A stretch of 55,702 bases of DNA, the filler included, from Jimgerdemannia flammicorona (Eukaryota): NCBI GenBank assembly GCA_003990765.1. It is 2 parts of 2 records of this genome, joined end to end, with 100 filler letters (N's around TTAATTAATTAA, not from the genome) between each part and the next. Parts side by side here need not be neighbours in the genome. Positions count along the whole stretch, not along the records: positions 1 to 27,802 come from RBNJ01000600.1; 1 more part is not named here. The stretch is one strand, 5' to 3'. Under the pieces are notes generated by a model that worked only from the letters and a program-made list of their open reading frames with translations, ran no database searches and had not been told where the DNA came from. Positions 10,201-50,658 of this stretch are shown here, piece after piece. A program made the translations under genes and the position numbers. Every line of letters begins with the position of its first letter. The stretch's first letter is position 1.

Positions 10201-11386
10201 ACATGCACTCAATTTTCCGGTACTGTTTCTGGTGAGGAGGATGGTGGGTGTTGCAGTTGTAATTTGCTTTGTGTGTTGGGAGTGTCATGGTGTTTTAGGT
10301 TCTCACATTCTGAATTCACTTAGATACATTTAGGTCGAGACAGAATCTGTGCCACTCATCGCCCTCTTCCTGTTCTTCCTCTCCATTTTTATTGTCGACT
10401 TCTAGTCCAATACCCAGTGGGAGTTTTGAACTTTTGTAGGTATGGCACGTGGAGGGAGAGGGAAGGAGGGACAAAAGGAAGGTTCAAGCTGAGACTACTG
10501 CAGTTAAAGGAGAGGTTGTTAGACTTGAAGGGGAAGATTGAAGAGATGGCAAGGACTATCGGCAAGATGCAGGCATTGTTGGAGCCTGTGAGGAAGACCT
10601 TGTTGAAGCCGAGCTTCATAGAGAAGGTGCAGAGCAGGTTCGAGGGGTATATGACACATTTGGTGTGAGTTACAGTTTATTATTCATTTTATCCATGCAT
10701 TCGACATTGGATTGTGAACTTACCCTTCTCTATTCCAGCGCAAAATTATCGACACTCTCATCATAGAACTATGCTCTCAAACATTGTGTCGAGATTAATT
10801 AATAAATTCGATTGCATTTTTCTCTGTGAAATACTTGATGACATACTGCTCGATGAAATGGTCGAGTGACCAGGTGATCTTATGGATAGCTCCTTGGAGT
10901 AAATTTCTTAAGTGTGAAATGAGGAAGGCATTCCTGTTATAATTACAATGCTACTCTAATTGGGTAGTGATGACATGACAATTAGGTGACAATATGACAA
11001 TTATGTCAGTTCAAAACAAACTCATGATAGTATCAGGCCCACAATTTGTTCAGTTTGTAGAAGGAATATAGCAGGTGGACCTCTATTAGAAAGATTACAT
11101 GCTGGTATGACACAAAGTTACATAGTTGAATACAATCACCTTACCGACTTGAACCAACTGGGCTGCAAACCAACAGCTTCTACATCTCTATACAGATAAG
11201 TATGGTGAATCTTGTATAATCTTCGAAATCCGAAAAACCTACTAACTTTAGTTTTGACCTCTGGTTTTGGTTGCTTTTAAGCCAACTGATGAGCCCCTTG
11301 AGCAAGGAATTTTCGGACATGTCAAACAAACACGATCTTGCTGATGATGGTTATATTTGAACACTAGTCACTTAAAAAAATTCCAT

Positions 11387-13065
11387 GGTGTCCAGTGAGT
11401 ACTTGATACTGAGGTCAGATCTCAGTGCAATTCTTGCATAATGTTCCTTGGGGATTTCAACTGCAAGGCTAGTTGGAATGAGCCTTCTTTCATGAGCAGG
11501 AACAGTGACTTGTTGTATAGCTTGAAGGTCTAAACCAATGGCTCCTTCTGACTATAGCTAAGAAATCTGAGCCTTGAGGTTGACTTGTATGAAATTGAGT
11601 ACAACTTCTTAGTCAACTGGTTGACCTTGGGTATCTTTGAACAGGACTAGAATCCTCTTAGACTTAGTAGTCTTTTTGGAATATTTAGTAGCAATGTGGC
11701 CAGACTAATAGCAAAAGAAGTAGGCTTCAGCCTTCTTAAGATACTCCTTTTCCTCAGGTATAAGTTTGCTCTTCTTGTTCTTATTGATAGTATCCAAGTT
11801 CATGAGGGCAGATCCAATAGTTCTGACTTTGGTTTTCTCTCTTCTATAGTTATTGTTGAATGGCAGTCCCTTCTATTCAAAGTAGTGATTATAGGTAATA
11901 ATATCAAACCTATTAGCAATTTTCATTATCATGTCTAGGTCTTTGAATTCTTCAAGTTTGATATGAACTCAGGTTTGTCCTTTCAGACCTCAGATATACT
12001 TATTGATCTTATTATCTTCAGTAACATAGTAGCTCTAGTAAAATAGATATTATATACTTATACAGACTTAAGTTATTTGATATTTACTAGATAGTTTTAT
12101 ATAGTCTTGATACTATTGATTAGTTTGAATTGACCTTGAATGGCATCTGAGAATTCACTCCAAGTCTTGATTCAGTCAGAGAATCTGGTATTCTGAATAT
12201 GATTTTATTACCAGATTATAGTATTTTCTCAAAAGAGTATAGTAGTAAATTGAACTAGTATTGCTTCTTTCAAATTAGTCAGTTCACTATATTGCTTCAA
12301 TTGAAAAAGTCAAGTATTAATAGATAGTCCTCCTCTTTGGTCATCAAAGGTATCAGGCCTCTGAGGCTTGATGGTGACTACTGTTAGAGATATTGATATT
12401 AGTATAGATATAGACTAAGTAGGGGCCTTATTGTTCAATTTGTCTAAGTAATCTTAAAGTTGGAAAATCTGAGTTAATATAGTATGCAAAAAACTTTCAA
12501 TAGATCTAATTGACTAATTGGGGATCAGCTATTTATTCTCTTCTTCTTGCTAATTATAGAAGATATTCTATAAGATATAGATATTATAGAAGTTTCTATC
12601 TTAGTCATTGATATCTATAATATTGTAACTGATACTTGAGAGGTTTCTTATTTAGACAAAGTATAACTTAATCACTGCTATTAAGTATAATGGTTCTGGT
12701 TTCTAAATAAGGAAGTAACTTATTCTAGAAGTTTCTAAATAGCTTAATAGTTACTTGAAGTTCTGAAAGATCTTATAAGTTCTGAGAGAAAATATTTTAA
12801 GCTTTATTCATAAGAACAAAGGGAATATTTATATCAGATCTGAAGAAAAATCTAAGAAATCAAAGGAAATACCAAGAGGAAAGTTCTCAGCAAAGATGAT
12901 AAATAAAGTTCTATAGATTTCCATAAAGTTTCATAACTAGCTAAAAATATTCTAACTAAAGCTTAGTGCTAAAAAAGAATTTCTAAGCATTCAGAAAGTA
13001 CTAGAAGGTTATAGAATATTTAAGAAAGATAAAGAAAAAGAAGTAAATTACACTGAAATATTATA
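11387..13065 (-). mobile_element. Truncated Ty3/Gypsy LTR retrotransposon: 5' LTR, gag, CCHC knuckle, N-terminal half of dUTPase
   Basis: Colinear with the element at 14577-16620. Degenerate knuckle (AYFFCY*SGHIATKY) continues in frame into EGAIGLDL...IPTSLAVEIPKEHYARIALRSDLS. Breaks off at about 11387. Many stops arise from C>T changes. Confidence 0.85.
12624..13065 (-). repeat. 5' LTR of the minus-strand Gypsy-dUTPase element
   Basis: Reverse-complement homologue of 14577-15041. Begins TATAATAT (from TGTAATAT) and ends ...CAGTTACA. Confidence 0.8.
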
Positions 13066-13420
13066 TTAATACTATAAAGATCAGAGTTGAAAATACTATA
13101 TTAAAGGAGTAAAGTAGGCCATAATCAAAACTTACTATAAAAGCTATATATCTCTATAAATTTCTAGTCAAAGTTTAGATAAATATATTGAAGAATTTCG
13201 CTTATTATATATATTAAAGCAGAAAGAGGAAAAGAGAGTAATTAGCAGTGAAAAATCTACTATTAATAAATATAGAACTGTCATCAATAGATAAACTCAG
13301 TATTTATCTAATTAGTAATTAAGTAGTTCTACTAGAGAGTATAGAGATACTCAACTAGTAGAAGATGAATTATTATTTTCCAAAGAGGTAGCCAGTAGAC
13401 AAGACTGATAGTCAATTTTA
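13066..13420 (+). mobile_element. Heavily decayed hAT transposase C-terminal fragment (older copy of the family at 17841)
   Basis: Aligns to about 21180-21490 through C>T/G>A changes: TACTATAAAGATCAG vs TACCACAAAGATCAG; GCAGAAAGAGGAA in both; CTCAACTAGTAGAAG vs CTCAACTGGTGGAAG. Confidence 0.75.
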
Positions 13421-13508
13421 ATTAATTTAATTTTTGAGATATATATATATATATAGATAAACAGATATATCAAATGGATTTTTCTAATCTATATAATATA
13501 GTATGAGA

Positions 13509-13740
13509 TAGTACTTATAAATAAATCAAATGAAATCAAGTTGAATTGAATGGGAGATCTGAAAAGTCAAATTAAATTGGGATTTTTTCAAGTTAAATAA
13601 AAGTCGAATCAAATGGAAGTTGAATCAAATAGAGCTTTAATTTGATTAGGGTTGAATTGAATGGAGCCTCGATTTGATTAGGATTGAATTGAATAGAGCC
13701 TTAATTTGATTAGGGTTGAATCAAATGGAGGCTTTATTTA
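13509..13740 (+). mobile_element. Decayed hAT/MITE terminus with GAATC-derived subterminal repeats
   Basis: Starts TAGTACTT (cf. TIR TAGTGCTC), followed by degenerate GAATC/GAATT pentamers and about four copies of a TTTGATTAGGGTTGAATTGAATGGAGCC-like unit. The other end was not found. Confidence 0.5.
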
Positions 13741-13934
13741 AATAATAATATTATAAAAATTTTATTGATTATAATATAGACTAGACTATCAATGATACAG
13801 GCTATTAATGATTTCTCTTATATCTAGCTACTACTGCCTGATAAGTGTTATTATATGCTCTTTTTTAGAGAGATAGATTCAGAGTCAAGATATTATATTA
13901 TATTTCTTTCCATATTACCTACAATTGTAGCAAC

Positions 13935-14304
13935 TAGTGCTCCCAACGAATCGAATCGAATCGAATTTGGCCCAAACTCAATTTGATTCGATCGAATCAA
14001 GGGTCCAATTCGATTTGATTCAAATTGAATCAAAGGTCCAATTCGATTTGAAGTTTGATTTGAACCTTAATTTTGAAAATGTAATAACTCAACGAAAACT
14101 CATCCAAATTTAACATATTTTAGCTTGTTAGATTCCCGTATTAATGTGATTCTAACAAGCTAAAGTATGTTAGATTTGGATGAGTTTATGCTGAGTTATT
14201 GCATTTTGAAATTTAGGGTTCAAATTAGACCCTCAATTCAATTCGACTCATTTAACCCTCAATTTGATTTGATTCGAATTGATTCAACTCATTTGGGAGC
14301 ACTA
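13935..14304. mobile_element. hAT-type palindromic MITE (370 bp)
   Basis: TIRs TAGTGCTCCCAA...TTGGGAGCACTA with a perfect 8-bp TSD GTAGCAAC (13927-13934 and 14305-14312). The body folds back around TTTAGCTTGTTAGA...TCTAACAAGCTAAA. Confidence 0.92.
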
Positions 14305-14576
14305 GTAGCAACTGATATATAAATGAACTCTTTTTGGAACCAGAACCTCTTTATCACTTGAAATTTCAATGTCTGGAGTATTATTATCAGAAATTTCAAA
14401 CATATTATCAATCTTCACTTCAATGTCTGAATCCGAAATCTCAATGATGGCAGCATTGGTGAGCATGTCATTCTCTACTTCAATGTCTGAGTCTAAAATA
14501 TCAATACAGCAGTATTGGAAATGACAGTATTGGGGGCTATAGCAGTAGCAGTTATGGCAGTAACAGTATTTAGAAT

Positions 14577-15041
14577 TGTAATATTTTAGCATAGTTTATT
14601 TCTTTTCTTTGTCTTTCCTGAACATTCTATAATCTTCTGGTACTTTCCAAATGCTTAGAAATCCTTTCTTGGTAACAAGCATTAACTAGTACTCATTTAG
14701 CTAGTTATAGAACTTCCTGAAAACTTGAAGAACTTTGTTTGTCATCATTAGTCATTTTTGCCAAAAACTTTCCTCTTAGCATTTTCTCTTGATTTCTGAG
14801 ATCCTTCCAGATCCTTCTTTCAGATCTTGTATAAATATCTCCTTTGTTTTCATAAATAAAGCTTCAGAATATTTTCTCTCAGAAACTACAAGAATTATTA
14901 GAACTCTGAGTATCTCTTCAAGCTACTTAGAACTTCCAGAACTAGTCACTTCCTCAAATAGAAACTAGAACCATTACACTTGGTAGTAGTAGGGAAGTTA
15001 TACCTAGTCTTATCAAGACACCTCTTAAGATACTAGTCACA
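14577..15041 (+). repeat. 5' LTR (465 bp) of the plus-strand Gypsy-dUTPase element
   Basis: TG...CA termini (TGTAATAT...AGTCACA), TATAAAT near 14830 and AATAAA near 14855. Boundaries coincide with the homologous LTR at 12624-13065. Confidence 0.82.
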
Positions 15042-15302
15042 ATACTATGAATGATAATGAATGGAACCTGTCATACAGTGCTTATGGTCCAGGCAATGCC
15101 TCTTACAATCAGCAAGAAGAAGAGAAACAGCAAATCCCTACTCAGTCAACTGGGTCTATCAAGAGTCTTTTGTAGACTATATTAGCTCAGATTGTCTAAC
15201 TTCAAGAATGTATAGAGAGAAAGAAAAGCAAGGCCCCTGTGTATACCTCTGCACCTTTACTGATATCAATACATCCGACAGCAGTCACCATCAAGCCTCA
15301 GA

Positions 15303-15655
15303 TAGTGCTCTCAAATAAATTGAATCAATTCGAATTGAATTGAATTGAGGGTCCAATTCAAACCCTATTTTTATAAATGTAATAACTTGAGGAATACATG
15401 TCCAAATTCAATGTTCGTTAGCTTGTTAGATTCCCCTATATAAGAGGAATCTAACAAGCTAAACCTCATTAAATTTGGATATATATTAGTCGAGTTATCT
15501 AATTTCTAAAAATAGAGTTTAAATTGGACCTTGAATCAAATTGGACCTCAATTCAAATTGATTCAAATCAAATTGGGCCTCAATTCAATTCAAAGTTTTC
15601 AAATTGAATTGAATTTGGGTCCAATTCAATTCAATTTGATTCATTGGGAGCACTA
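15303..15655. mobile_element. hAT-type palindromic MITE (353 bp) inserted in gag
   Basis: TIRs TAGTGCTCTCAA...TTGGGAGCACTA with 8-bp TSD GCCTCAGA/GTCTCAGA (one C>T difference). Same central hairpin as the MITE at 13935. Excision restores gag IKPQKPNTFDG. Confidence 0.92.
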
Positions 15656-16395
15656 GTCTCAGAAGCCTAATACCTTTGATGGCCAAAGAGGTGGACAGTC
15701 TACTGATGCTTGGCTTTTCTAATTGGAGCAATACAGTGAACTCGCCACACTTCTCTGAGGGAATACTGTAATCTGGTAGTGAAATCATATTCAAAACACA
15801 AGATTCTCTAGCCGAATCAAGATCTGGGGTGATTTCTCTGATGCTGTATAAGGCCAATTCAAACCAGTCAACAGCACTAAGGCCACATGAGACCACTTGG
15901 CAAATGTCAAACAACTCAAGTCTATACAAGCATACAATGTACAATTCCTGTCAATCTTGCTAAAGCTACTATATATCACTGAAGATGAGAAGGTTGACAA
16001 GTACATCTGAGACCTGAAAGGTCAAACCCAAGTTTGTATTGAACTAGAAGAATCCAAAGATCTAGACACAACAATGAAGATTGCTGATAGGTTTGATGTC
16101 ATCACCTATGGTCACTGCTTCAAACAGAAGAGACTATCTTTCAAAAACAATAACTATAGAAGAGAGGAACCCAAAGTCAGAACTATTGAATCTGCCTTCA
16201 TGGACCTAGATACCATCAATAAGAACAAGAAAGACAAGCTTACACCTGAGGAAAAAGAGTATCTCAAGAAGACTGGAGCCTGATTCTTTTATATCAGCTT
16301 GGCCACATTGGAACTAAATATCCCAAAAAAACTGCCAAACCCAAGAGGATCCTAGTCCTGTCTAAAGACACTCAAGGTCAGCCAGTCAAACAAGA

Positions 16396-16803
16396 AGTTG
16401 TACTCAATTTCATATGAGTCAACCCCAAGGCCCAGATCCCTCAAGCATAGTCAGAAGGAGCTATTGGTTTGGACCTTCAAGCAGTACAATAAGTCACCAT
16501 CCTAGTATATGAAAGGAGGCTCATTCCAACTGGCCTTTCAGTCGAAATTCCCAAGAAATACTATGCAAGGATTGTACCAAGATCTGGCCTCAGTTTCAAG
16601 TACTTACTGGATATTAGTGCAGGAGTTATTGATCCTGACTTCTGAGGTGAAATGCAAGTCCTGCTAGTCAATCACAAGAACTAACCATATACTGTCAATG
16701 AAGGTGACAGCTCATTCTGGAGTGAGCCACCCTACCAGTTATCAAAGAAGTTGCCAAGCTGTCATCAACTAAGCAAGATCAGAAAGGCTTTGGCAGGACT
16801 GAC
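16396..16803 (+). pseudogene. Retrotransposon-encoded dUTPase domain, between Gag-NC and protease
   Basis: All five trimeric dUTPase motifs are visible: AIGLDL (I), PRSGLS (II), AGVIDPDF*GE (III, TGA from CGA), EGD[short deletion]LIL (IV), KGFGRT (V). Confidence 0.9.
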
Positions 16804-18310
16804 AAAGTTACAAGCATAGCTGAGAACTAAGCCAATCTTCAAAGGTCTAGTCAAGAGACAAGAACTAGATGTTCTCATAGACAGTAGAGCTGTTGGGAAC
16901 TTCATCAACAAGAACCTCATCAACAAGCTCAAGATTCTCACCAAACCAGCTAGCAAGAATGATAGAGTTGTTACTGCAGATGGCACCACTCTACCAATCA
17001 ACTCAATTGCTACTAAACATCCCCTCAAGATCCAGAAATACTGAGAACATTTAGATTTTGAGGTAGCACTACTAGGAGACCATGATCTGATCCTAGGCAA
17101 ACCCTGGCTTACATGACACAACTCTTAGATTGATTGGATCAAGAATGAAGTCACCTTGATTCAAGATAGAGCCAACATTATAATCAAGTCAGACAAGACT
17201 CAGATAAAGACCCCAATTGCCACCCTTTCAGCAATTCAGTTTAAGAAGGCCCTCAAGAAAGCTACCTGTGCCTTTGTTGTACTGATCTGATCTAAGAAAG
17301 AAGACAAGAAGCTGTCAATCAGTAAAAGTATCGTTACTGCTAAATAAATACAAGGATGTCTTTCCAGACAAACTATCTGGTCTACCACCTTCAAGAGATC
17401 ATGAGCACGAAATCAAGTTGGTACCTGATGCAGCTATACCTAAGGAGAAGATATACCATATGTCACTATTCAAAATTGAAGCAGTTAAGAAAGAACTCAA
17501 TGAACTTATCAAGCAAGGAGCCATTCAGCCAAGCAAATCACCCTTTGGCTCTCTAGTTCTATTTATCAAGAAAAAGGATGATATTCTGTGAATATACATA
17601 GACTATTGAGTACTCAACGAGATCACAGTCAAGAACTATTATCTGCTACCACTCATAGATCAAATCTTTGATACCCTCAAGAATGCAAAATACTTCACTA
17701 AGATTGATCTCAATTTGAATCAAACCAGAAGACTTATCCAAGACTGCCTTCATAATACCTTTTGGACTCTACAAATTCCTAGTTATGGCCTTTGGTCTCA
17801 CCAATGTGCCAGCAATCTTTCAAGACCTCATACAAACTGTTAGTATTCCAAACAAGTCAATTTGAATCAAATCCAGATTCAATTCATCACATGATGGTTT
17901 GATTCGAATCTCAAATCTGAAGCCATCCGAATCAACTCGGATTTAATCCAAATCGCCCCATCTGAATTGCCCCATCCGAATCACCCATCCGAACTACTCC
18001 AATCCGAATTACTCAATCTGAATCACTCAATCCAAATTGCCCCATCTGAATTGCCCCATCCGAATCACTCATCTGAATCACCCATCTGAACCACTCCAAT
18101 CCAAACCACTCAATCCAAATCACTCAATCCAAATCACTCAATCTGAATCACTCAATCTGAATCACTCAATTCGAATCCTCCAATTTGAATCCTCCAATTT
18201 GAATCCTCTAATTCGAATCCTTCAATCCGAATCCTCATCTGAATCCTTTAACCGAATCCTCCAATCCAAATCCTCCACATGACTCATATGCTGGACATGT
18301 CCACAACACA

Positions 18311-18341
<31 letters not shown>

Positions 18342-18360
18342 TACACATGTACATGCAAAC

Positions 18361-21300
18361 ATGCAAACACACATGTCGACAGATCAGTCTTCAACAGTTC
18401 ACAGTACCAATGATGCTTCAAGTCAAACATCCCTGATAGTTCCACACCTTCCACACAATCCTCGCTCTGAAATCTGGCAACATTATATTAAGATAGGAGA
18501 TGATGTTGTTTTTTTTTTTTTTTTTATAATCTCTTGGACTCCGTCTTTATTACCAGTCTATGAATAAGTATACAATATCATCACCCACTATCTGATCCCC
18601 ATTGGGTGGCCCCACCCCACCTCATCATGTATAAAGACCACTCTCTCACCAATAACTCCAACTCTCCCACCACTCTGACCACAGATTTTCACCACCAAGC
18701 GGCACCTCCGACCCCCCTGCAGCCCCCAACCAAGCCACCAGCCTGTCAAGGTATCCTCCATAAGGAACTGCCACCTTGCTAGCCAGCTCTCCAAGCTCAG
18801 TCACTTCTCCTCCTCAAATACAAATAGCCAGTGGCTGGCCAGCCCAACCCAAATAGCCAACGCCCAGCCTAGAGTAATCCACTCTTCCCCAACCCCTCCT
18901 ATCAATCGATCCCTCAGGTCCTCCCACCTCCCCTGTACATCATCACCCCTATGCCTTACCCCCAAGCGGTCTCCAATGGCCTGCCAAAAGTCTCCCAACA
19001 CCTCACACTCCCCTAGCCAATATTCCGGCATCTGTACCAATCCCCCTTCCTGCCTGACATTATGGCACTCCTTGCAGTCAAAGCAGCCCTCTACAATAAG
19101 GTGTCCTGAGTGGAAGTTAAGCATCACATTCCTCCTCAGTACATGCCACCAGACTACCCAGTACTTCGGTGGCATCCAATTTTTCACTGCGGCACTCCAG
19201 ATGCCAGTCCCACTCCTCACCAATTCCAACTCCTTGCCAACAACTAGGCCACAGATCCTGGCCTGGACTCTGAGATGATGTTTGTAATTATTGCAGGTAA
19301 AAAATTAAGATGCACCTATTGATACTTTGTTTTGACACATACATGATATTGTTTTGATACACACATGATATTGTTTCATCCACCCCCATGAACTGCACCA
19401 GCCAGAAGTTCAAAATGCTTGGGGGTATGACTTCGAACATGAATCGACACATAAAAGACAAGCACTCTGACAAAATCAAAAAGATCACAGAGACAAATAA
19501 AATTGACATCCAAGCTGTAGTGGGTACGTTTATCCAATTGCCTGACCATTTCTGTACCAATAACGCCATTTAATCAAAAATTTTAGCCATACTCTTCAGC
19601 AGATTTCGAAATCGGCTCATTTGCTGGATTGTGTGCACAGACCAGCCATTCACAACCATCGAGAGTGATCAATTGCATAGCATCTTTGGTCTCCTCAAGC
19701 ATGATTTATATTTGCCAAGTGCTGATACTATTCGCAAAGATGTCCTGGAGGCCTATAGGAAGGAGCACAACAATCTCCGCCAGACACTTCAGGTAAAATA
19801 AGGGCAGCACTATGACCTTTGCAAGCTGAATTATATAAAAGAGCTCATCAGTTTAACCTCACATTCATTAAGTACAATTCAGCAGGCAAAATTTCGTTTA
19901 CGATTGACACATGGACATCCCCCAATGCAATTTCGTTTCTGGGCATTATCAGTCATTAGATTGACCTCAATTGGTGGCTTAAATCACTCACCCTTGACTT
20001 TGTTAAACTTGCTGGCCCTCATTCTGGAGACAACATCACAGATGCTTTTATTAGTTGTATCCAGGAGCTTGGGATCACCACCAAGATAAAAAAGGGGGGC
20101 TTGCTGTCAGGTCGGCGTTTTGAGGGAGGTCCTAAACCAAACCAGACTTTATTGGTTACTTATTTTCACATAAATTTGTCAACCAAATATTTCAAGTACA
20201 GATTTTGGCCATTACGATGGACAATGCCACAAACAACTCAACATTTTTCCAAGGTTTAGCAGCCAGCCTCAAACAGAAAAACGTGGCCTTCAGTGCAGAA
20301 AGCTGCAGTGTATGATGCCAGGCCCACGTACTGAACCTTGCTGTTCAGGACTATCTTACATAAGTAGACAAAACATCTGAGAGAGGAGGGGCCCTGAGCA
20401 TAATTTCCAAGCTGCGCAAACTGGTTGTGTCGGTCCAATCGTCTCCACAACAATGAGACAAATTCACTGCACAGTGTAGGGCAATCAGTTTAGCCCTGAA
20501 AGAGCTTATATTGGATGTCTGTATGCATTGGAACTCAACATTTGCAATGATCCAGTGCACGCTGGAGTTTGCTGTAGTATATATCCTTTTTTTCTTCGGT
20601 TGGCTGAAGCAACTGTTTTGGATGATGGAAGATTTATTTTTAAAAAAAAAAAAAAAGCCAATAGATTCAACGATGGCTGCTGATAAGGAAATATGGGCTG
20701 AGACTCTAGGTGAAAGCGAGTGAGACGTACTTAGGAATGTTATCAGAGTTTTGAAAGTAAGTGGTGGTTGCCCTGACTCCACACTTATTTTGTCTGCCTC
20801 CGCACAATGCAACACCTCACCACATATAACTGTCAGTGTTTCGATGATTGTACGAAGGATATAGTCAAACAAACAACCCCGACAATAAGCTCTGTAATAC
20901 TGGTATACAACCTTCTAATTGACTGGCTAGAAGACAAGCTTGAGGCCAGGCTGGAGGGTTGCGGTGATTTACGGTTAAGCCCGGATCAGAGAGACGCCAT
21001 GGAGGTTGCTCTAAGCAAGCTTAGAAAATACTACTTCCAAACAGATACTACTGTATACTCAATCAGTACAGGTATGTTGATGTCGGCATGTGGCCGTTGC
21101 CCCTTCCAAAACAGAGAAAACTCTGCAAAAACTCACTCTCCTTTTCTTCGAACAGTGCTGGACCCATGCTTAAAGCTACAATACCACAAAGATCAGGGCT
21201 GGGAGCAGCACTTCATTGAGAGAACCAAGCAGGCCGTAATTGAAGTGTACCAGAAAAACTATGCACTGCCGCAAGGTTCCAGCCGAAGTCCGGACGAATA

Positions 21301-21723
21301 TGCCGAGGGATCCCTCCTGTCCCACATTTACTTCAGCAGAAAGAGGAAGAGGGAGCTGTCAGAGGAAGAGCTGCCGTCAATAGACGAACTTACCATTTAC
21401 CTCGCCAGTGACCATGTGGTCCTGCTGGAGGGCACAGAGGTGCTCAACTGGTGGAAGGTGGGTTGTCAGGCGGACATTGGGCCAATTTAACCCACCAATC
21501 TAACCACCGCTCTACCCACCGGGGCATGCAGCTGCATCAAATGGACTTCCCCAGCCTGTGTGGTATGGCTCGGGACTACCTGGTGATTCCTGCCTCCAGC
21601 GCTCCTGTCGAGTGGGTGTTCTCAGATGGGGTGGACCTCGTTGCCCCAAAGAGGTGTGCGCTGAATGCTGAGACAATCTGGGCATGTATGTATCTGAAGT
21701 CTTGGTGGGGCTTGGGCCGCTAA
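18361..21723 (+). pseudogene. Intron-containing hAT transposase with BED zinc finger and C-terminal dimerisation domain (disrupted)
   Basis: BED finger RSEIWQHY..CNYC..GMTSNMNRHIKDKH, split by a LINE and an intron. Then DQPFTTIES, catalytic SFTIDTWTS and ITMDNATNN, CQAHVLNLAVQ, WNSTFAM, LNWWK, and FPSLCGMARDYLVIPASSAPVEWVFS. Several in-frame stops. Confidence 0.92.
18508..19271 (-). mobile_element. 5'-truncated Tx1/L1-like LINE (3' end) inserted in the BED finger exon
   Basis: Poly-T at 18509-18525 is the minus-strand poly-A tail. 11-bp TSD GAGATGATGTT (18497-18507 and 19272-19282). Encodes the same ORF2 C-terminus (CKEC..PEYWLGEC, ...MGIR*) as the full copy. Confidence 0.92.
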
Positions 21724-21977
21724 AATTTGACAGGTCCATGGATAAGTTGGTTGGCCTTGTGGAATATTTAATACCTTTCAAAATAATAAAAAAGGAAAAA
21801 AAAACCTGAGGACTCAGCCCGGAGTTTGTGGCCAAAGTGGGGTGAGGTTGGTGGTGGCGGCAGAGGGAGCATGCATCAAAAGGTCTTTCTCTGGTCATCT
21901 TTCTCTACTACAATTCACATTACACACACTTTTACAACACACTTTCAAGTCGTTTATTGGAGAAAGATATTAAGGCA

Positions 21978-23939
21978 ATGTCAACCAGTAAGCAAGCCGA
22001 CATATGTACTAGGTCAGGCGGACCTGGGGCCTTCAACTGGCAGCATGTCGGGAGAGGGTATGGACTGGGGATGGGGTCATTCGGGGGCTCAGATGGGCAG
22101 GGCAGCTTGGGTAGGGGAAGCGGCACTGGAGGGGGGGCTGGAGGGCAGTAGGGAAGGAGCTTTGCAGACACGCTGAGGACAGGAGGTTGGCCAATGGGAG
22201 ATCGTAGTGGACAGTCAGAAGGGAAGGGGAAGAAGAAGGCTGAGAATGCTGGGGGAGCTGGGCCTTCGTCAGTGGGAGGTGGAGGGAGTGGAGCAGTTGC
22301 TGGGGGTAGTGGTGGGACTGCTGATGGTGGCATGATGGCAGATCAGGAGGAAAAAAAAAGAGATGTGACAGCTGATGGCCAGGGGGGACAGGGGTTCCTG
22401 ATGTGGAAGGGAGACCTGGCAGATGGTGTAACGGGACTGGCGGTGGCCCCGTTGCTCAAGAAGTCAATCTTGGAGTTCGTGGCTACCTTGTACTTCCGGG
22501 GCTTGGCAGTGACGGCGAGGATGGTTCTGGGGCTCATTTCAAAGCAGGTGGCTGGGGCAGCCTCGGTGAAGTTTTTGAAGGGTCTGGAGGGGGTTGAGGT
22601 GGGCTTTGAGGAGGCGGGCCCACTGGATGAGGTGATGAAGACTGGAGTGGTGGTTGGGGAAGTGGTGGTCCCTATGGTGCGCTGCCTTAGGTGGGACCCC
22701 AGGGTGGTTCAGTTGCTAGTTAAAGGGGTATCTATGGTGTTGAAGGTTGAGACTAGGAGGAGGGTTGAGGAGGTGGTGGCTGAGTATGGTGACGTGGTGG
22801 ATATCGGATTCCGGGTGTGGAAGGGGACTGTGATCAGGACAGGTGACGTGGATGTCAGGATTAGGCTGGTGGGGAAGGAGGCCATTGGCAAGGCAACTGA
22901 CTGGCCTTCGGTGATGATGTGGGGGGCCATTGTTTGTAGAGTGTCGAGGGTGAAGGGGAGTGAGGAGGAGGAGGAGGATTTGTTGGAAGCACTGGAGGAG
23001 TTGAGTGGTGCAGTGGAATGGAGGGCAAAGGCCTGGAAGCTCTTTGAGGAGACGATGCACCTAGAGGTAGTGGAGGGGAAGCGGATCCGCATGGACAAGA
23101 GGCAGTGGGAGCAGGTACAGGGGCACAGGAGACAGAGGGAGCTTTTGGCAAGTATTGACATGGAGGCGAAGAAGAAGGCAGAGGGGGCTGGGGTGACTGG
23201 GGGCATCGAAGCCAGTGTCTGGGCTGGTAAAGGAGAGGAGGAGGTGGAGGCAGACAAGGATGGAGCTGGGAAAGTGCCGAGCAAGAACCCCTATGCCGAT
23301 GGGACTTTTGAGGTCTGGGAGCAGGAATTGGATGACTCTTCTCCTCCTCTTATCAGGAGGGGCCTGGCTGTGAAGAGAAGGATGACAGAGGATATACTGA
23401 TGAAGGGGGCCCAGCGAGTGCGATTTGGGGTCCCTGATGTGGCGGAAGGGGGCCAGGTGGTGGTAGTTGGTGAGGATGAGCTGGTGGATATCCCTGAGGA
23501 GGAGTGGGATGAGGCTGCCAGTGTAGGTGCTGACACCACGATGTTGGATGCAGGATGGCTGGGGACTCTGGGTGGGAAGGAGGTAGGGAACTTGCTGTGG
23601 TTGTATATGGTGATGGACAACCTTGCGGCTGAGGCCTTGGGAGAAGTGGACCTGCAGGCGATGCCTGATGAGCATTGGATGGAGATGTTGCAAGGAGATG
23701 GAGTGGTAGGAGCACTGAGGGCAGAGATTCTTATGATCCTCCTGGAGGAGGAGGGTTATGAGGTGGATGAGGTGAGGAAGGCGGAGCTGATGGTGGTTGC
23801 TGATGAGTGGGCAGCCTACTGCTGGGCTGAATGCCATGGTTTGCAGCTCTGGAGGGAAGCCTGTCTGGAGTATCGTGAGGACTTTGAGAAGAGAGAAGAT
23901 GGGGCAATGGTAGAACTTCTGGAAGGGTTGGAGGCATGA
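21978..23939 (+). pseudogene. LINE ORF1 (about 650 codons; one premature TAG at 22149-22151)
   Basis: ORFs 21957-22151 and 22194-23939 are in the same frame, separated by one TAG. Gly-rich N-terminus, SFADTL motif, RRM-like VQLLVKGV...YGDVVDI...RTGD region, acidic C-terminus. Confidence 0.75.
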
Positions 23940-24045
23940 GAAGCTGGGGAGAGGGAGCTAGCTGCTGAACATGTCTTGGACTTAGTGCAGGAGGAGCAGA
24001 ATGTGGACTTTTAGAGGATGGGATCACGATTTAACATTATTCCTT

Positions 24046-27000
24046 ATGAATGGTACAACTACTATTTTCTCTTTGAATGTGAATGGGTTGAGGGGACCTG
24101 GGCAGCGTAAGAACATTTTTTCTTGGCTCAAGGGATTGGAGGCTGATATCTTCTTACTACAGGATGTTCAATGTGAGGATGAGGATGATTGCTTAGAGTG
24201 GACTAGGGAATGGGGTGGAGCTACTGCCTGGTTTGGTAAAGTGGCGATTCTGGTGAGGAAGGGGAGAGGCAACTTGGAGGGAATCAGAAACTGGGGTGAT
24301 CGCTTGGTATGGGGAGATTGGCAGCGGCCAGGGTGGGAGTCAGTGAGAGTTGGCTCCTGCTACTGCCCTGCAGTTAGGGGTGAGAGGATTGCATGGATTG
24401 AGGAGCTGCTGGAGGAGGGTATTCTCTTGGAGGAAGGAGTCGATGTTCTCGGGGGGGACTTTAATATGGTTCGGGATCAGCATCTGGACAGAACTGATGG
24501 GGGGAGGAGTGCAGGGGGGAGAAGTGGAGGTCTGGATACATGGGAGAAGGTGGAGAGGTTGAGCTCCTTAGGGGATATGGGCAGAATGTGTTGGGCAACA
24601 ACTGGGTCTACACACATTGGGTGAATGGCTTAGGTACAAGGATTGATTGGATTCTGACGGTAGAGTATTGGGGTTCTGATGTTTGGAAGATGTTGGTGGT
24701 AGAGTGGTGCCCTTGGTCTGATCACTGGGGAATATTTGGAAAGGGGCAGTTTGGGGGGAGTGGAGATGGACCCGGACATTGGTGCCTTAACTCCTCCCTG
24801 CTGGCTGAGAAGGAGTTGTGGGACTCATGGGAGGTGGACATTCAGGTGAAGGTTCTTGCCTGGAGGCATGAGGGTTTGTCTGTTGGTGTCCATTGGATAA
24901 GATTGAAAGAGGCAGTGAGAGTATATTGGGGGGGAGCAGGTAGAGATGTTGGGAGGTGGAGCAGGTAGAGATGCTGGGAGGTGGAGGAGGGAGCACACAA
25001 GGTGTGCTTCCAGCAGGTTGAGAAAACTGCAAATGGATTGGGTGGATTTGCTTACTGCGGATGGAGTGGAGGATTGGAGGGTAGAGCAGGCTAAATTGGA
25101 GATAGTGGAACTGCAACAGGTCTTGTGAGAGGAGGAGGAGACCCATATGCGTGGAATGGCTGCTAGGCTAAGGTGGCAGGGGCTTGAGGAGGGTGAGTGG
25201 CCAACTAGGTACTTATCAAGACTCCTAAAAGCCAGGAGGGTGCGACATTGGTGGGATGGGATCTTGGATGCTGATGGGGATATGGTGCATGGCATGCAAC
25301 GAATCCTGGGGGTTTTAAAGAGGAGATGGCAGGGTTTGTGGAGTGAGAGGGAAGGGGGTGCCGATGGGGTGATGATTGCTGATACACTAGGGGAGTGGGA
25401 GTCACCGCAAGTAGCTGGACTGGATGACTTGATCTTACCGATGCGAGGGGAGGAGATCCAGAGTGTCCTTGCAGCAACTAAGCTTGGAACAGCACCTGGG
25501 GAGGATGGGTTGCCTTGGGACTTCTGGAAGAGGATGGTAAAGGTCCCTGGTATTTTGGGGGAGATGACTGTGCTCTGTGATCATGTTCTTCAGAGCAGTG
25601 AGTGGGTTGGAGAGCAGGACCTTGGGCTGGTTGCCCTATTGTATAAAGACAAAGAGAGGAGGGAAGACTGGAAGAACTGGAGGCCGATCATGCTTCTGGA
25701 TATGGACAGGAAGATAGTGACTAAGGTGATAGTCGCAAGGCTGCAGAAAGTTGCCCAACAGGTTCTGGGAGAGGAGCAGCAGAGCTTTGTTGGGGGCAGA
25801 CTTATAAGAGATGGTACTGCATGGGTGCATGGGGTCATTGAAGGTGCCCAGGCTTGTGGACTGGATGGAAGGTTGGTCTTTTTGGACCAGGAGAAGGCCT
25901 ATGACCGTGTATGGTGGGTTTGGCTGGGCAAGGTGTTGGATCAGATAGGTGTTCCCCCAAGATTTCGGACATCTATATTGAATCTGCTAGAGAGCAGTCG
26001 GGCGGGACTGATGTGTAATGGTCACCGAGGTTTGGCATTCTCCTTGGGTAGAGGAGTTCCTCAGGGGGACCCACTGTCCCCTATACTCTATGCCCTTTCG
26101 TTGGAGCCATTGATGGATAAGATTCATAGGAAGGTGGTGGGGCTCTCTATTTATGGTATAGTGTAGAAGGTGGGAGCCTTTGCAGATGACATGGTGGTTG
26201 GACTTGGGTCTGTGGCAGATGTCGAGGCACTTAGGGAGACAGTGGAATGGTATAAGGCTCACTCGGGGGCAAAGCTCAACTGGCATAAGTGTGAGATGAT
26301 GGTGCTTAGTAATGGGCTAGTGGGTGGGGATGTCATTGGAACAATTGTCTCTACTGGTGAGGCAGTACAGTATCTGGGCATCTTTCTTTCTGTATATGGT
26401 TCTGTCTTACTGTGGGTGTAGTGGGAGAACAGGGTGACCATATGGGGGGAGGCCCTTCGGAGTTGGGGAGGCTGACATATTTCTCTGGCAGGGCAGGTGA
26501 TGGTTCTGAACATATACTGGTTCTCCAAGCTGTGGTACGTGGCCTATCACCTTGATTTCCTAGCTTGGGTGGTGAAGAGGCTGATGAAGATGGCCAGAGA
26601 TTGGATCTGGGCAGGCAGGAGGTCTCAGATAGGTTGGGATACTCTTGCAACGCTGGTGGTCAGGGGAGGTCTGGGCCTTGTGGACTTCCCTAAGAGGCTG
26701 CACTGCTTGCGAGCCTGGTGGTTGAAGAGAGCTGCAGAATTGCAGGGAGGGGGTTGGGTGCCACTGTTGAGAAAGGTGTGGGTGATGAGGACATCTCCTC
26801 GAGGGTCCTCCGGGGATCTGCTCTCTTTGGTGAGGCTGAATGGAACTCAGTGGTTGCGGTTTAAGGGTTTTTGGTGGGGGGTGGTAGATGGATCACACCG
26901 CATTGGCCTGCACTGGCAAGGCAATGAGGGGGAGGTGGATTGGGGACCCGATATGTGGCAATGGGATAGACTGCTCCTGGGGGGTACTCCACTTGATACA

Positions 27001-27729
27001 TTTAATTTTGGGGATGAAGTGGAGTGTCAGTAGTATCTTGGACAGGATCTTTGGCCCAGTGGCTGGCAGGCGGCAGGGATCGGCGAGGAGTGGGACTGGG
27101 CAGGTATCTGGTCTTGGAGTGCTGAGGTGCGGAGGTGGCTTCCTCCCAAGTTCTGGGTGGTATGGTGGCGAATGCTGTGGAGGAATGTTATGTTAAACTT
27201 TCGCACTGGGTATCTGGTGGATGGTGGCCGTTATGATTGTGAGGAGTGTTATAATGTAGGGCAGGCAGGGGGTATTGTGCAGACACCAGAACATTGGCTG
27301 GGGGAGTGTGAGGTCTTGGGAGACTTTTGGGTAGAAATAGGGGATAGATTAGATGTAAGGAGGAGGCTGGCAGGTGTGGGAGGCCACTGGGAGGACTTGA
27401 GGTCTCAGCTAGTGGGCGGAGTTGGGGACAGCTGGCTTACTGTAGGGTGGGTATTGGCTGCGTGGGTGGGACTAGCAGGACATTGGCTTTTTGTATTTGA
27501 GGAGGGACAGTAGATGGGGCTAGGGGAGAAGATTTCCAGGTGGGAGGAGCTGTTGGGAGATCTGTTGACTGGATGGTGAGTGGGTTGGGGCCCTCAGGGT
27601 GGGCAATGTCACAGCTTGGTGGCAAGGATCTGTGTGCAGAGTGGAGGGAGGGTGGAGATTGTATTAGACAAAGTGGTCTTTCATCGGGAAGGGGTAGGGG
27701 TGGGGGGCCCTCCTAGAGGGATCGGATAG
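24046..27729 (+). pseudogene. LINE ORF2: APE endonuclease, reverse transcriptase, C-terminal CCHC; frameshifted with stops
   Basis: Endonuclease SLNVNGL, LLQD, GGDFN, RIDW, SDH. RT APGEDGL, NWRPIMLL, FLDQEKAYDRV, GVPQGDPLSP, FADD. C-terminal CEEC..PEHWLGEC; ends PPRGIG*. Confidence 0.93.
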
Positions 27730-27802
27730 GTGGAGAGATAACTGTATTTATAGAGATAGATGGACATAATAAAGGATGGGAGTCCAAGTGACTATAAAAA
27801 AA

Positions 27803-27902
27803 NNNNNNNNNNNNNNNNNNNNNNNNNNNNNNNNNNNNNNNNNNNNTTAATTAATTAANNNNNNNNNNNNNNNNNNNNNNNNNNNNNNNNNNNNNNNNNN
27901 NN
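27803..27902. other. Artificial contig spacer (N44-TTAATTAATTAA-N44)
   Basis: A symmetric 100-bp gap with a six-frame stop linker. This is an assembly/scaffolding artefact. Confidence 0.95.
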
Positions 27903-28460
27903 GTCAGCAAATCTGCCACCAACTCCTCCCATCTTGATAACTTTTCCCGGATCCCTATCTGTCACCCCTCCTCAAAAACAAAGAGCCAATGTCCAGCCAA
28001 CCCCACCCACACTGCCACAATCCAACCTACAGTAAGCCACTGATTGCCAACCCCTCCCACAAGTCTAGACTCCAGATCTTCCCAACGACCTCTCTCCCCA
28101 TCTGGTCTCCTCTCAACCCCAAGGCGGTCCCCTACAGCAATCCAAAAGTCACCCAGAACCTCACACTCCCCCAGCCAATGTTCAGGTATTTGCACAAAAC
28201 CCCCAACCTGCCCAACATTATAGCACTCCTCACAATCCAGCTGACCTCCAACCACCAGATGCCCAGCACGGAAGTTCAACATAACATTCCTCCGCAACAT
28301 CCGCCACCATACTACCCAGAACTTGGGAGGAAGCCACCGCCGGACCTCTGTACTCCAAGACCAGATTCTTGTCCAATCCCACCCTTCACCAATCCTCACC
28401 GCCTGCCAGCTACTCGGCCAAAGATCCTGGCCAATCCGCCGCTGACACTCCACCCCATCT
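27903..28460 (-). mobile_element. 5'-truncated copy of the same Tx1/L1 LINE (ORF2 C-terminus)
   Basis: ORF 27962-28453(-) is highly similar to the 27127-27513(+) region: RRWLPPKFWVVWWRML, CEECYNVGQ, GLAGHWLFVFEEG. Confidence 0.9.
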
Positions 28461-28679
28461 CCGTATCACATGGTCTTTCTCAATGGCTTCAGGTGGAGCA
28501 AGACATGGGCTTGGTGGATAGCATTCGTCAATGGTAGGGGGATGTGGTGGGACCTTTTACCCAATAGCACTCAGTTGGAACAGTCTTGGTTGAGATACAA
28601 ATAGACTGGGTGCTAGTGGTGGAGTACTGGGGTAATGTACTGGACACTGCTGAGGTGTGCTGGTGCTCTTAATCAGATC

Positions 28680-28717
<38 letters not shown>

Positions 28718-30655
28718 GGACCTAGGACACCTCATCAACCAGACTGAAATCCACACAGACCCCATGAAGATTGAGGCTGTTGCAGCCTACCCAAGACCCA
28801 GAACAACTACAGAAGTCCATGCCTTCCTTGGACTGGCCAGCTACTACAGAAGGTTCATCAAAGGATACTCTAATATTACAGCACCTATCTATGAGCTACT
28901 GAAGAAGGAGACCAAATTCGAATGGACCAAGGAATGCCAAGAAATCTTCAATGAACTCAAGACCAGGTTGACCCAAACACCTATCCTCAGAAGACCAGAT
29001 TGGAATCTAGAATTCATCCTGCAGACAGATGCAAGTGCTATAGGACTTGAAGCAGTTTCAGCTCAGAAGAAAGATGGACATGAATATGTCATCTCCTATG
29101 TAAGCCAAGGTACCTATAGAGTAGAACAGAACTATGAGTCATATAAGCTCAAATGCTTAACAGTAGTTTGGGCAGTAGACAAGTTCCACTACTACCTAGC
29201 CAGGAAATACTTCACTATTTAAACAGATTATTCTGCTCTTGTCTGACTATTCCACACTCTGAACCCCAAAGGAATATATGCCAGATGGATCTACAGGCTG
29301 TAAGAGTATGACTGTACTGTTAAGTACCACTCAGAAAGAACTAACACCAATGCTAATGCACTCTCAAGAACACTCCAAAACACCCCCATCAAGACTATTC
29401 AATATGAATAAGGAGCTATACTATGGATTAATCAGCTACCTTGGGCAGCAGAAGATGCCCAACCACCTCAAACCCTGGACAATCACTATCATCAACTGGA
29501 CTTGGAAACAATTTGAACTAGATAACACTATACTCAGAAAAGGAGGAAAGCTAGTAATATCTAAATACAAGAAGTATCAAGTAATGAAGGAAGTACATAA
29601 GCAAGGATATCTAAGAGGAATCAATATATACAATAAGGTAAGAAGAACTATATGGTGGTCCAAGATAGAAGAAGATCTGTGCCAATTTGTCAAAGAGTAT
29701 GACAAGTACCAAAAACAGAAATAAGATCAGTAAGATCAGATACCTGGGTCATCAAGAATTGAGCCTATCTCCTTCCACTACATCACAATGAATATTATTG
29801 GGCCACTACCAGTAATATTATCAGGAAACCACTATATTATAGTTATTGCAGACCTCTTCACCAAATGGATAGAGACAGAAGCATTACAAGAAGCCAATGC
29901 CCTCTCTATAGCCAACTTCCTGCACTAAGAAATCAGCTGCTACTATAAGACACCAAAACAAATCACAACAGACTGTGGCACAGAATTTGTCAATGGATTC
30001 CATGAGATAATATATCAGAAATACAAGATCCAGCACATCAAGACCACTGCATACTACCCTCAAGGAAATAGACAGATAGAGAGAACCAACAAGACCCTCA
30101 AGAACATTCTGGTGAAGATCACAGAGACATATGAGAATTGGGATAGCTATCTCCCAACTGCCCTCTCTATCCTATGAGACATACAGTCACAGAGTACACA
30201 CTTTACCCCAAGAGAACTGCTCTTCAGAGAAGAAGATTCTGATAGAACCTCAGCTACAAATCTAGACCTATCTTGGAGATAGGTTGATGCAGAAATCTGG
30301 AGGCTACACCAAATCAGGAAGAAGGCTGAAGATTATATTATCAAGTCACAAGTACTGATAAGAAAGAATGTGGAAAAGAATTACAAGACCCTAGAACTCA
30401 TTCAAATCAGAGAAAAGGTCCTATTGTATCAAAATATAGTAGAAGCCTCATGGTCATGAAAACTGGAGCCCAAATGGGAAGAACCCTTCTATGTGCAAGA
30501 TATCAAGGGAACTACCTTCTGGCTTAGAAAAATCTCAGGGACCATACTGCCTACTATGGTATATAGGAACAGACTCAAGAAGTACCACAAACCTATATAA
30601 GAGAAGCAAAATATGATGACTGCCCATGAGGTTCTAGTCTGCAAATCATAACAGC

Positions 30656-36313: not shown

Positions 36314-38205
36314 ATGTACACAATCAACCCCGCAGAACAACCCATACTCACCGCGACGGCAATCGTCCTCCTCAGCTACCTCCTGATCCGCGCAACATCA
36401 AGTCGCAAGCCCAAGCTGGTCGTCCAGCCCTGGAACAACATACCCATTCTCAGCATCAAGGAAATGATTTATCCGCCCCAAGAGGATCCGTGGAAGAAGC
36501 TCGTCACCATCGCCCAGGACCCTCGAAATTACCCGCTCTGCGCCATCCCCGGCATCTTCAGCGGAGCGCCAAATCTGGTCGTCAATGATATTGACATGAT
36601 GAAGGAAGTATTTATCCAAGGACAATCCTATGGCCACGGCGAGCAAAAAATGGCGAGACCTAGAGACTTAATCACCATGAGCTATTACCTCTTTGGAGGA
36701 CGGCACATCGCCAACTCAGACGGTCACGTAAGTCATTTGGTTTCCGTTATGATTTCTGGAATTTTTAACAATGGTCCTTCATTTCACTGTCTAACAATTG
36801 ACGCTCCCCTCCACTGACTGCGCACAGGAATGGAAATGGCGTCGCCAGGCCTATTCGCCACCCTTCCAGCCGAGATTCCTCGTTCCAGCCTTGCTTCCTT
36901 ATGCCATCGAACGCGTCCAAAAACTCAACGAAGAGCTTGCCAAACTCGCAGCCACAGGAGAGGCCGCGGAGTTGGATAGCGAGATGAGCCACGTTGCGTT
37001 CGACATTATTTGCAAATATTGCTTCGGTTATGCTGATGAGGAACTCGACTTCCAAGACGTCAACGGCAGGGAAAACCTCAAGGTAGGAGAATCAACCTTC
37101 ATCTTTCGCATGCGTGACTTTTTTTTTCCTTTCAAGGGGATCCAGAACCATTCTGGCCTTTTAAAATTGGAAATGTCATGAACATATCTCGCAGAATGAA
37201 TTCGTCGCCCTCTTCGGGAGCATCGCCTCCGTCTACCCCCGCATTCCCATTATCAAGCACACTGAATGGGGTCAGCGTCACTACAAGCCCGCCCGCGAGC
37301 GCCTTGACGCCTTTATCAATCGCGCCATTAAAAAATCCCTCGCCCAGCCCGACCTCTTCCTCGACAGCAATACCGATAAACCACGTTTCCGCCCTCTAAT
37401 TCACGAGCTTGCCAAGAATACCAACTTCGAGGAGGGTACCGATCATAGCCTCGGCAGGGAGATCCTTGCCACAATCTTTGCGGGACATGACACTACCTCG
37501 CATACATCTTCGTTCGCACTCGGTGCTATCGCCCAGCATCCTGAGGTCCAGCAGCGCCTTTTTGAGGAGATCAGGGGGCAGTTGGGACCTGACCCGATCG
37601 ATGTCGCTGCTTTGACAACTGAGTCGTTAGGAAGTATGAAGTATTTGACTGCAGTCATTAAAGAGGTCATGAGGATGTATCCGACCATCAATAACTCGTA
37701 TGTCGAGGCTCTAAAGGATACCACTTTAGGCGGAATGGCCGTCCCAGCTGGTACGTTATCCTAAACTCCCTCGCTCTTGCGCGTACAATGTCGTATTGAA
37801 CGTGACCTTGCAATCGCCAATCCCTTTCCTAACCATTTGCTACCTTATCACAATTCAGGAACCATCATACTCGCCAACTTCCGCGGCGCCCAGATGAACC
37901 CCAACCTCTTCCCGAACCCCGAAAAGTTTGACCCGACCCGTTGGCTCGAACACGCCGACGCCGACATCTTCCAGGATGTCGACCACATTGCGACCAGATC
38001 CTCCAAACCTGAGCTCGTCTTCGGCCTCGGTCCGCACGCCTGCCTCGGCCGTAATCTCGCCTGGCTCGAGCTTCGCATTTTGATCGCCGCAGTCGTGAAC
38101 AAGTTCAAGCTCAAGCTCAAGGAGGGAACCGCACTCGATACCTATACGTTTTTAACCATGTTTCCCAAGGATGGTGTGTGGGTTACGTTGAAGGAACGTG
38201 TTTAA
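36314..38205 (+). CDS. Cytochrome P450 (paralog A), intact, 523 aa; exons 36314-36727, 36828-37082, 37195-37750, 37859-38205
   Basis: GT-AG introns give an open 1572-nt CDS. N-terminal hydrophobic anchor, WKWRR (C helix), AGHDTT (I helix), KEVMR (ExxR), FDPTRW (PERF-like), heme motif FGLGPHACLG. Confidence 0.95.
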
Positions 38206-38475
38206 ACTGCCGGAGTCGGAGTCTTAAATGTCCTTGATGGTTGGGGTTGGGATAGATCTAAAATTGAGCTTCGACCAAGTTATAAACATTTCCTTTTCTC
38301 TCCAAAATGATTGTGGCATGCACACAACTCTTAAATAATGATTATTTAATTCCAATAAGTAGTTTATTCCCTAACTATTAGTTCTTGAATTTTTTTTTTT
38401 GTAAATAAATCACAAATGATATGTATATGCATTTTATAAAAGCACTACTATTTAGTACTCAATTGCTCTAACTGT

Positions 38476-44190: not shown

Positions 44191-44286
44191 TAATATAAAT
44201 TATACAATATAAGAAGATTTAACTGATTAAAGGTTGGGAGTTTGAATAAAATATTTCAGAGATAAATTATCTATTTAAGAGATAGT

Positions 44287-50623: not shown

Positions 50624-50658
<35 letters not shown>

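Follow-up and report, generated by a model that had tools for sequence, protein, structure and literature searches.

In the betaretroviruses mouse mammary tumour virus (MMTV; protein p30) and Mason-Pfizer monkey virus, the zinc knuckle or knuckles of the nucleocapsid (NC) are followed by a flexible linker, a dUTPase of the trimeric type and the protease (PR), and the enzyme arrives together with Gag-derived proteins, according to the available parts of the two accounts (PMC4531489, PMC1802613). Their NC-dUTPase protein is described in the former as the transframe product of a gag-pro frameshift. For Gypsy elements of the fungus Postia placenta, the available text of Novikova et al. 2010 (PMC2864245) places a dUTPase at the amino-terminus of Pol in PosPlaTy3-3, at its carboxyl-terminus in PosPlaTy3-4 and between PR and the reverse transcriptase (RT) in PosPlaTy3-5, proposes independent acquisitions from different sources, and cites reports from Phanerochaete and Tuber. 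Later papers give fungi only the PR-RT position; they describe a trimeric-type dUTPase within Pol in the Gypsy-like elements Tmt1 (Tuber), PosPlaTy3-5, Juno, Vesta and TelKA (Adineta vaga) and in planarian elements (PMC5408684, PMC6431247). Literature searches turned up no other listing of retrotransposons with the dUTPase-PR order. Here we describe a dUTPase-bearing element in a 55,702-nucleotide stretch of Jimgerdemannia flammicorona DNA (NCBI GenBank assembly GCA_003990765.1), referred to below as the window, which is eukaryotic, rich in transposons and built of AT-rich blocks alternating with GC-normal ones. The evidence points strongly to two decayed remnants of one Ty3/Gypsy-type family that had Gag, NC, dUTPase, PR and RT in a single frame, with an independently captured dUTPase of the eukaryotic type.

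Like PosPlaTy3-3 as portrayed in the available text, the family studied here is of the Gypsy type, and its Pol begins with the dUTPase, ahead of PR; the likeness is one of description and not of sequence, and that portion of the source is silent on an in-frame CCHC knuckle before the dUTPase (PMC2864245). The original prediction had placed the novelty of the element in the position of the enzyme. This claim fails because the architecture is already catalogued for fungal Gypsy elements, namely in PosPlaTy3-3, and the family is an ordinary addition to that layout, both the layout and the idea of repeated capture having been published in 2010. In Tmt1, PosPlaTy3-5, Juno, Vesta and TelKA the dUTPase lies downstream of PR, whereas in the studied family it adjoins the nucleocapsid. 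The predicted resemblance to the betaretroviral arrangement holds good against the published accounts as far as these were available (PMC4531489, PMC1802613); the differences are that NC and dUTPase here occupy one frame, that the dUTPase stands closer to the cellular enzymes of eukaryotes than to the retroviral dUTPase of solved structure, and that there is no env.

On the plus strand, Pfam, tblastn and local profile hidden Markov models (HMMs) placed a Gag capsid, a CCHC knuckle remnant, a dUTPase, a protease and the N-terminus of RT in that order. Pfam was run on frame 1 of 16001-17700 with stops read as X (curated cut-off of 22 bits for the dUTPase profile PF00692), and domain edges were also taken from local dUTPase and PR HMMs run on the six-frame translation. 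The capsid (15744-16142, +) matched Ty3_capsid at E 1e-7 (32 bits against a cut-off of 29.1) and Retrotrans_gag at E 1.7e-7. The knuckle remnant (16281-16321, +), identified from the translation, the DNA and an alignment of the two copies, reads *FFY (the asterisk being a stop) and, past a 1-bp deletion, continues as QLGHIGTKY. In the dUTPase (16412-16803, +) each of the five motif regions can still be made out; PF00692 gave E 3.3e-20 and 72.6 bits over 16427-16708 (residues 143-236; profile positions 2-94 of 129) and the local HMM gave independent E-values (iE) of 9.4e-39 for 16412-16708 and 5e-6 for 16708-16803; the predicted span of 16396-16803 was thus off by about 15 bases. The protease (16844-17167, +) was detected by RVP_2 at E 8.1e-9 (residues 283-389, equivalent to 16847-17167), by gag-asp_proteas at E 4.8e-4 and by the local PR HMM at iE 1.5e-29 (16844-17158), and its active-site region reads LIDSRA. 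The N-terminal part of RT (17337-17841, +) aligned by tblastn with residues 275-449 of the database protein P0003 and residues 421-592 of P0052; the match breaks off at 17841, where a 14-nt satellite (family D4) follows. These E-values exclude chance for the plus-copy domains, and the original prediction of a dUTPase between the Gag knuckle and the protease is borne out.

The junction between knuckle and dUTPase is preserved in relatives from elsewhere. An exhaustive search of representative proteins with the 316-residue NC-dUTPase-PR read-through as query returned 17904 proteins at E <= 0.001. The top match among them, P0004 (178 aa, 79% identical), and a second protein, P0154 (216 aa), come from short contigs and belong to one 90% cluster; at 76-80% identity, both are open from the C-terminus of Gag through the knuckle, the linker and the dUTPase, and P0154 extends to the end of the dUTPase domain. 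Where both window copies have remnants, P0154 has an intact knuckle, CFFCHQTGHIATKC, and both remnants align to its CX2CX4HX4C pattern, so that a CCHC knuckle was found together with a Ty3-type capsid. Pfam listed no zf-CCHC match in P0154 at E <= 0.001, and the knuckle call therefore rests on the visible pattern. The linker of P0154 is about 25-35 residues long, from knuckle Cys41 to a dUTPase start at 66-77, and its dUTPase scores 128.8 bits against PF00692 with the motif strings AIGLDL, PRSGL, GVIDPDFRGE, RIAQLIL and KGFGSTD. The plus copy is identical to P0154 at 112/144 and 32/40 residues, the first frame switch in the tblastn alignment falling at the knuckle (P0154 residues 1-49 versus 27-170). 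We noted in passing that the source label of P0004 is 'dUTP pyrophosphatase', although the protein is part of the Gag-Pol of a retrotransposon and has a zinc knuckle ahead of the enzyme.

The second copy lies on the minus strand and is a 5′ fragment (13063-11390, -; delimited by inverted-repeat arms and tblastn) that runs from an upstream region through Gag and the knuckle to the middle of the dUTPase. A single ungapped tblastn match joins 11803-11390 to residues 1-138 of P0154 (105/138 identical, 76%), which leads from the C-terminus of Gag through knuckle and linker into the dUTPase and takes in its motifs I and II; the expectation that this copy needs no frameshift was therefore correct, though it contains four in-frame stops, every one aligned to a Gln of P0154. 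Its knuckle remnant (11722-11681, -) reads YFFCY*SGHIATKY, with the first and last Cys now Tyr and one stop. The N-terminal half of its dUTPase, with motifs I and II only (11384-11590, -), was recovered both by PF00692 (E 4.9e-9, 36.5 bits, profile positions 3-64 of 129) and by the local HMM (iE 2e-20, positions 2-70), and with 72.6 bits in the plus copy and 36.5 in the minus copy both enzymes exceed the cut-off of the trimeric dUTPase profile. The minus copy breaks off in mid-dUTPase at about 11390, and tblastn revealed no protease or RT downstream of it on the minus strand; the order relative to PR is therefore shown by the plus copy only.

Both copies are dead and unable to encode protein, and their decay pattern resembles repeat-induced point mutation (RIP). 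In its best frames the plus copy has 18 stops in 618 codons, with frame changes at the knuckle (the 1-bp deletion), at about 16708 within the dUTPase, behind that domain, on the way from PR to RT, and within RT, where at about 17720-17730 two RT matches overlap in different frames. The Gag stretch 15666-16175 contains seven stops in 170 codons. The plus-copy dUTPase has six stops besides the frameshift at about 16708, beyond which its C-terminal third, with motifs IV and V, lies in a different frame (16708-16827 by tblastn with P0154); the N-terminal part of the dUTPase and PR are in the same frame, the stretch between them being offset by two small indels. Across the NC-dUTPase stretch of both copies, each of the ten stops stands opposite a Gln, an Arg or a Trp in P0154. 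The copies form the arms of one inverted repeat (11391-13063 versus 14579-16611) that are 79% identical and differ by 173 transitions and 23 transversions; 45/72 of the C/T differences fall in CpA and 24/56 of the G/A differences in TpG. A CpA bias of this kind is more typical of ascomycetes. The observed/expected ratio of CpG is 0.00-0.07 in the pieces of the element, against 1.06 in a neighbouring cytochrome P450 gene. The copies were probably inactivated by RIP-like C-to-T and G-to-A hypermutation together with small indels, to which truncation of the minus copy and nested insertions in the plus copy were added.

The original prediction spoke of two diverged copies. Both do carry NC and dUTPase; the minus copy, however, is without PR, and the arms may be one inverted duplication. 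It is quite possible, if somewhat short of an even chance, that both arms go back to a single 5′ fragment, which was copied on the spot in reverse orientation before RIP-like mutation drove the two apart, in which case the window would be a single independent witness of the NC-dUTPase junction. The arms of the one inverted repeat flank a 1.5-kb AT-rich spacer, their homology stops at inner boundaries that match each other and show no end of an LTR (long terminal repeat), and 88% of their differences are transitions with the CpA/TpG bias expected of RIP on a duplicate. Against such an origin, the minus arm stops within the dUTPase while the plus arm continues into PR and RT, a palindromic insert of 350 bp is found only in the plus arm, and two head-to-head insertions followed by a later deletion explain the arms equally well. 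The NC-dUTPase junction itself is independent of the duplication question because P0154 and P0004, from other contigs, have it.

How often the layout occurs was examined in 151 proteins, made up of the best 150 of the 17904 matches and P0003. The order dUTPase then PR was present in nine, all Pfam-confirmed, and was less common than PR then dUTPase (22/151); single dUTPase segments accounted for 92 proteins and tandem dUTPases for 25, and one protein each had NC then dUTPase (P0004), PR only, or no segment. Three of the nine have an upstream zinc knuckle: by Pfam, P0032 comprises Retrotrans_gag, zf-CCHC, dUTPase and PR, and P0047 and P0028 comprise zf-CCHC, dUTPase and PR. P0052 contains dUTPase, PR, RVT_1 and RNase H (Pfam), and P0018 is one open reading frame (ORF) from Gag to the start of RT (Pfam and tblastn). 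In the dUTPase-PR families the enzyme lies within 25-60 residues of the zinc knuckle. With nine Pfam-confirmed proteins, the layout therefore exists as intact open frames in several lineages. When long polyproteins were sought by a word-based method, the decayed query matched one of 1804 candidates, P0003, whose order is PR-dUTPase, and a scan of metagenome contigs with P0154 gave 355 pattern matches, none of which was confirmed. The tandem-dUTPase proteins (P0005-P0012, P0020, P0034-P0036 and others) have two to three dUTPase domains per chain and no protease segment, and may be single-chain pseudo-trimeric dUTPases.

The dUTPase of this family is of the eukaryotic cellular type. P0154 aligned over the full domain with solved eukaryote-type dUTPases at E 2.7e-36 to 1e-30, examples at about 1e-31 being human mitochondrial DUT, shrimp dUTPase and CG4584. 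Among the 60 best of its 70 matches to structure chains, the sole one named POL POLYPROTEIN stood at E 6e-14, and no betaretroviral-labelled chain was present. Residues 61-207 of P0154, as modelled in the ESM Atlas, can be superposed on a cluster of eukaryotic dUTPases (TM, the template modelling score, 0.65 by query and 0.83 by target), and the Atlas feature search gave generic dUTPase clusters only, at a score of 0.76. A quick tree built from 172 dUTPase domains unites the window family in one clade, with a support of 99 in the Shimodaira-Hasegawa-like approximate likelihood ratio test (SH-aLRT), and its nearest neighbour is P0022, also a dUTPase-PR protein (support 88); retroelement-linked domains are otherwise scattered among stand-alone ones, and one clade (SH-aLRT 97) contains both PR-dUTPase and dUTPase-PR proteins. 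Because the dUTPase is of the eukaryotic cellular type and there is no gag-pro frameshift, these comparisons support its capture independently of betaretroviruses and a probably convergent likeness. This agrees with the convergence originally proposed, eukaryote-type matches reaching E 1e-31 to 3e-36 as against 6e-14 for POL POLYPROTEIN. As for the -1 frameshift of betaretroviruses, nothing of the sort was found: the frame change of the plus copy is a 1-bp deletion inside the knuckle.

The dUTPase might instead be a movable module that was shifted across the protease within fungal Gypsy lineages and not captured anew each time. On that reading, a mature NC-dUTPase fusion, if one was released, would give the RNA-bound dUTPase of betaretroviruses its first counterpart outside vertebrates. 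A history of repositioning is allowed by the sequences because the window has both orders, one dUTPase clade mixes them and the enzyme lies near the knuckle, but we consider it unlikely. Still less probable is homology of the NC-dUTPase-PR module with the betaretroviral one, through descent from, or exchange with, a betaretrovirus-like ancestor. The order of modules is identical in the available account (PMC4531489), the accessible text of Llorens et al. 2009, which compares the betaretroviral dUTPase with that of fungal chromoviruses, calls the two similar (PMC2774666), and common descent could be hidden by the fast evolution of retroviral sequences; yet P0154 is far closer to the dUTPases of eukaryotic cells and large DNA viruses (E 1e-30 to 3e-36 versus 6e-14), a single Gag-dUTPase frame here stands against the gag-pro frameshift of betaretroviruses, and in the tree the dUTPases linked to retroelements lie dispersed between stand-alone enzymes. 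It is most improbable that the dUTPase is foreign to the polyprotein of the element, a piece of a host dUTPase gene or of some other element that rearrangement or faulty assembly has placed between Gag and PR, for although the locus is a transposon nest (hAT, LINE (long interspersed nuclear element) and a second Gypsy element), N runs occur at 27803-27902 and the plus copy changes frame on either side of the dUTPase C-terminus, the knuckle-linker-dUTPase junction recurs in the minus copy and, open, in P0154 and P0004, the dUTPase shares its CpG depletion and stop pattern with the flanking Gag and PR, nine other proteins have dUTPase-PR in one ORF, three of them with an upstream zinc knuckle, and the N runs are 11 kb distant.

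The evidence supports the assignment of the element to the Ty3/Gypsy-type LTR retrotransposons with the order NC-dUTPase-PR, and several observations weigh against the reading of it as one single-frame family with an independently captured enzyme. No LTRs were found for either copy by self-blastn, repeat finding or boundary alignment; both copies being truncated relics, this weakens the case for completeness and not the family assignment. No chromodomain was found in the one frame scanned to 30900, and the relative P0003 has one. The search of representative proteins yielded no intact copy of the family with a whole gag-dut-pro-pol frame: besides the short P0004, none of the matches listed was more than 51% identical over the matched stretches, and there is therefore no full-length polyprotein of the family in that library. 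The single frame through dUTPase, PR and RT is accordingly read from the plus copy together with the distant relatives P0018 and P0052. In motif V the place of the conserved Arg is taken by Trp in P0154 and by Gln in the window; because of the Trp, the best relatives may themselves be mutated copies. In the dUTPase tree 93 of the 169 inner branches are open; the PR tree is star-like, with the window PR in no supported clade. Both trees being so poorly resolved, neither the captures nor the origins of the dUTPase-PR order can be counted. Finally, the description of the element as fungal, drawn from the RIP-like signature and the literature, is provisional.

Taken as a single-frame Gypsy element with its own captured enzyme, the live family would have encoded a polyprotein of capsid, CCHC knuckle, trimeric-type dUTPase, protease and RT, in which about 25 aa linked the knuckle to the dUTPase and about 13 aa lay between the dUTPase and the protease. 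By analogy with retroviral dUTPases, whose role is described in the available part of PMC4531489, the enzyme would be packaged into the virus-like particle within Gag-Pol and hydrolyse dUTP beside the reverse transcriptase; the lowered dUTP would put less uracil into the cDNA and so shield it from uracil excision. With this element, the few retrotransposon families that have a dUTPase of their own grow by one and, taken with the nine database proteins, it shows that a nucleocapsid-adjacent dUTPase upstream of the protease recurs outside vertebrate retroviruses, which bears on why reverse-transcribing elements repeatedly recruit this enzyme. The value for the annotation of transposons in fungi is modest: a protein called a stand-alone 'dUTP pyrophosphatase', as P0004 is, can be a piece of a retroelement, and calls of that type can inflate counts of cellular dUTPases in metagenome annotation.

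Upstream of Gag, the plus copy begins with a region common to both copies (14579-15302, +; 72% identical to 13063-12360 by blastn), which may contain the LTR and leader sequence. It is followed, in the plus copy only, by the palindromic, foldback-like insert of about 350 bp (15311-15657, without strand), detected by self-inverted blastn and as inverted repeats I8-I10, which breaks up the copy before Gag. A second, related palindrome of about 350 bp lies at 13933-14281, and both are self-complementary at 77-78%. Judged by their translation, the two may be made up of the short satellite-like unit of 17945-18222.

Beyond the break in RT, a 10.9-kb nest of other transposons (17842-28715) lies within or beside the plus copy. 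It contains the 14-nt satellite (17945-18222), a hAT remnant (19800-21720; Dimer_Tnp_hAT E 4.8e-11) and a LINE (22152-27510; Exo_endo_phos E 1.2e-9, RVT_1 E 7.1e-20) that is GC-rich, strongly GC-skewed and preceded by a 595-codon open frame without a Pfam match. Inverted fragments of the LINE tail stand at 18804-19304 and 27965-28465. Self-blastn showed N runs at 27803-27846 and 27859-27902, and the assembly around them (27803-27902) may be imperfect.

After the nest comes a fragment with the C-terminus of RT, RNase H and integrase (28716-30584, +; Pfam and tblastn). PR followed by RT was found on the plus copy itself; RNase H and integrase were found only in this fragment, which possibly belongs to another element. 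Its Pfam matches are RT_RNaseH_2 (E 7.6e-29), Integrase_H2C2 (E 2e-6) and rve (E 4.1e-7), and by tblastn it covers residues 508-725 and 876-1020 of P0003. It starts at 28716, directly after a poly-T run, and is colinear with the plus copy apart from some 50-60 missing RT residues. With only five stops in 359 codons and DNA 63.5% identical to 41935-43783 of the second LTR element, it may come from a different insertion than the plus copy.

That second LTR retrotransposon (38554-44666, +) has LTRs at 38554-38846 and 44370-44666 that are 88-89% identical. Its interior has a GC content of 0.22-0.29 (0.29 over 41209-42569, where TpA is in excess and CpA/TpG are depleted). A dUTPase remnant at 40776-41098 (local HMM iE 1.3e-8; Pfam 18.3 bits and E 0.002, under the 22-bit cut-off) lies between the protease motif IIDTGA (39987-40004) and RT (41209-42569); the PR call is weak, at a local HMM iE of 0.033. 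Its PR-dUTPase order is also that of the Tmt1-like elements. With PR-dUTPase-RT here and dUTPase-PR-RT in the studied family, the window therefore has both positions of the enzyme and, as in Postia placenta according to the available text (PMC2864245), the position varies between element families, there within one genome and here within one window.

The remaining features are tandem copies of a cytochrome P450 gene. One P450 exon, compared with the longer proteins, gave no match at E <= 1e-20; on two exons Pfam p450 was found at E 1.5e-28 and 5.3e-28. The copies lie at 36293-38300, 47340-49312, 50040-51613 and 53946-54917, and their DNA is 64-94% identical. In the copy at 36300-38300 the CpG ratio is normal (1.06), and the RIP-like, CpG-depleting mutation therefore spared that copy.

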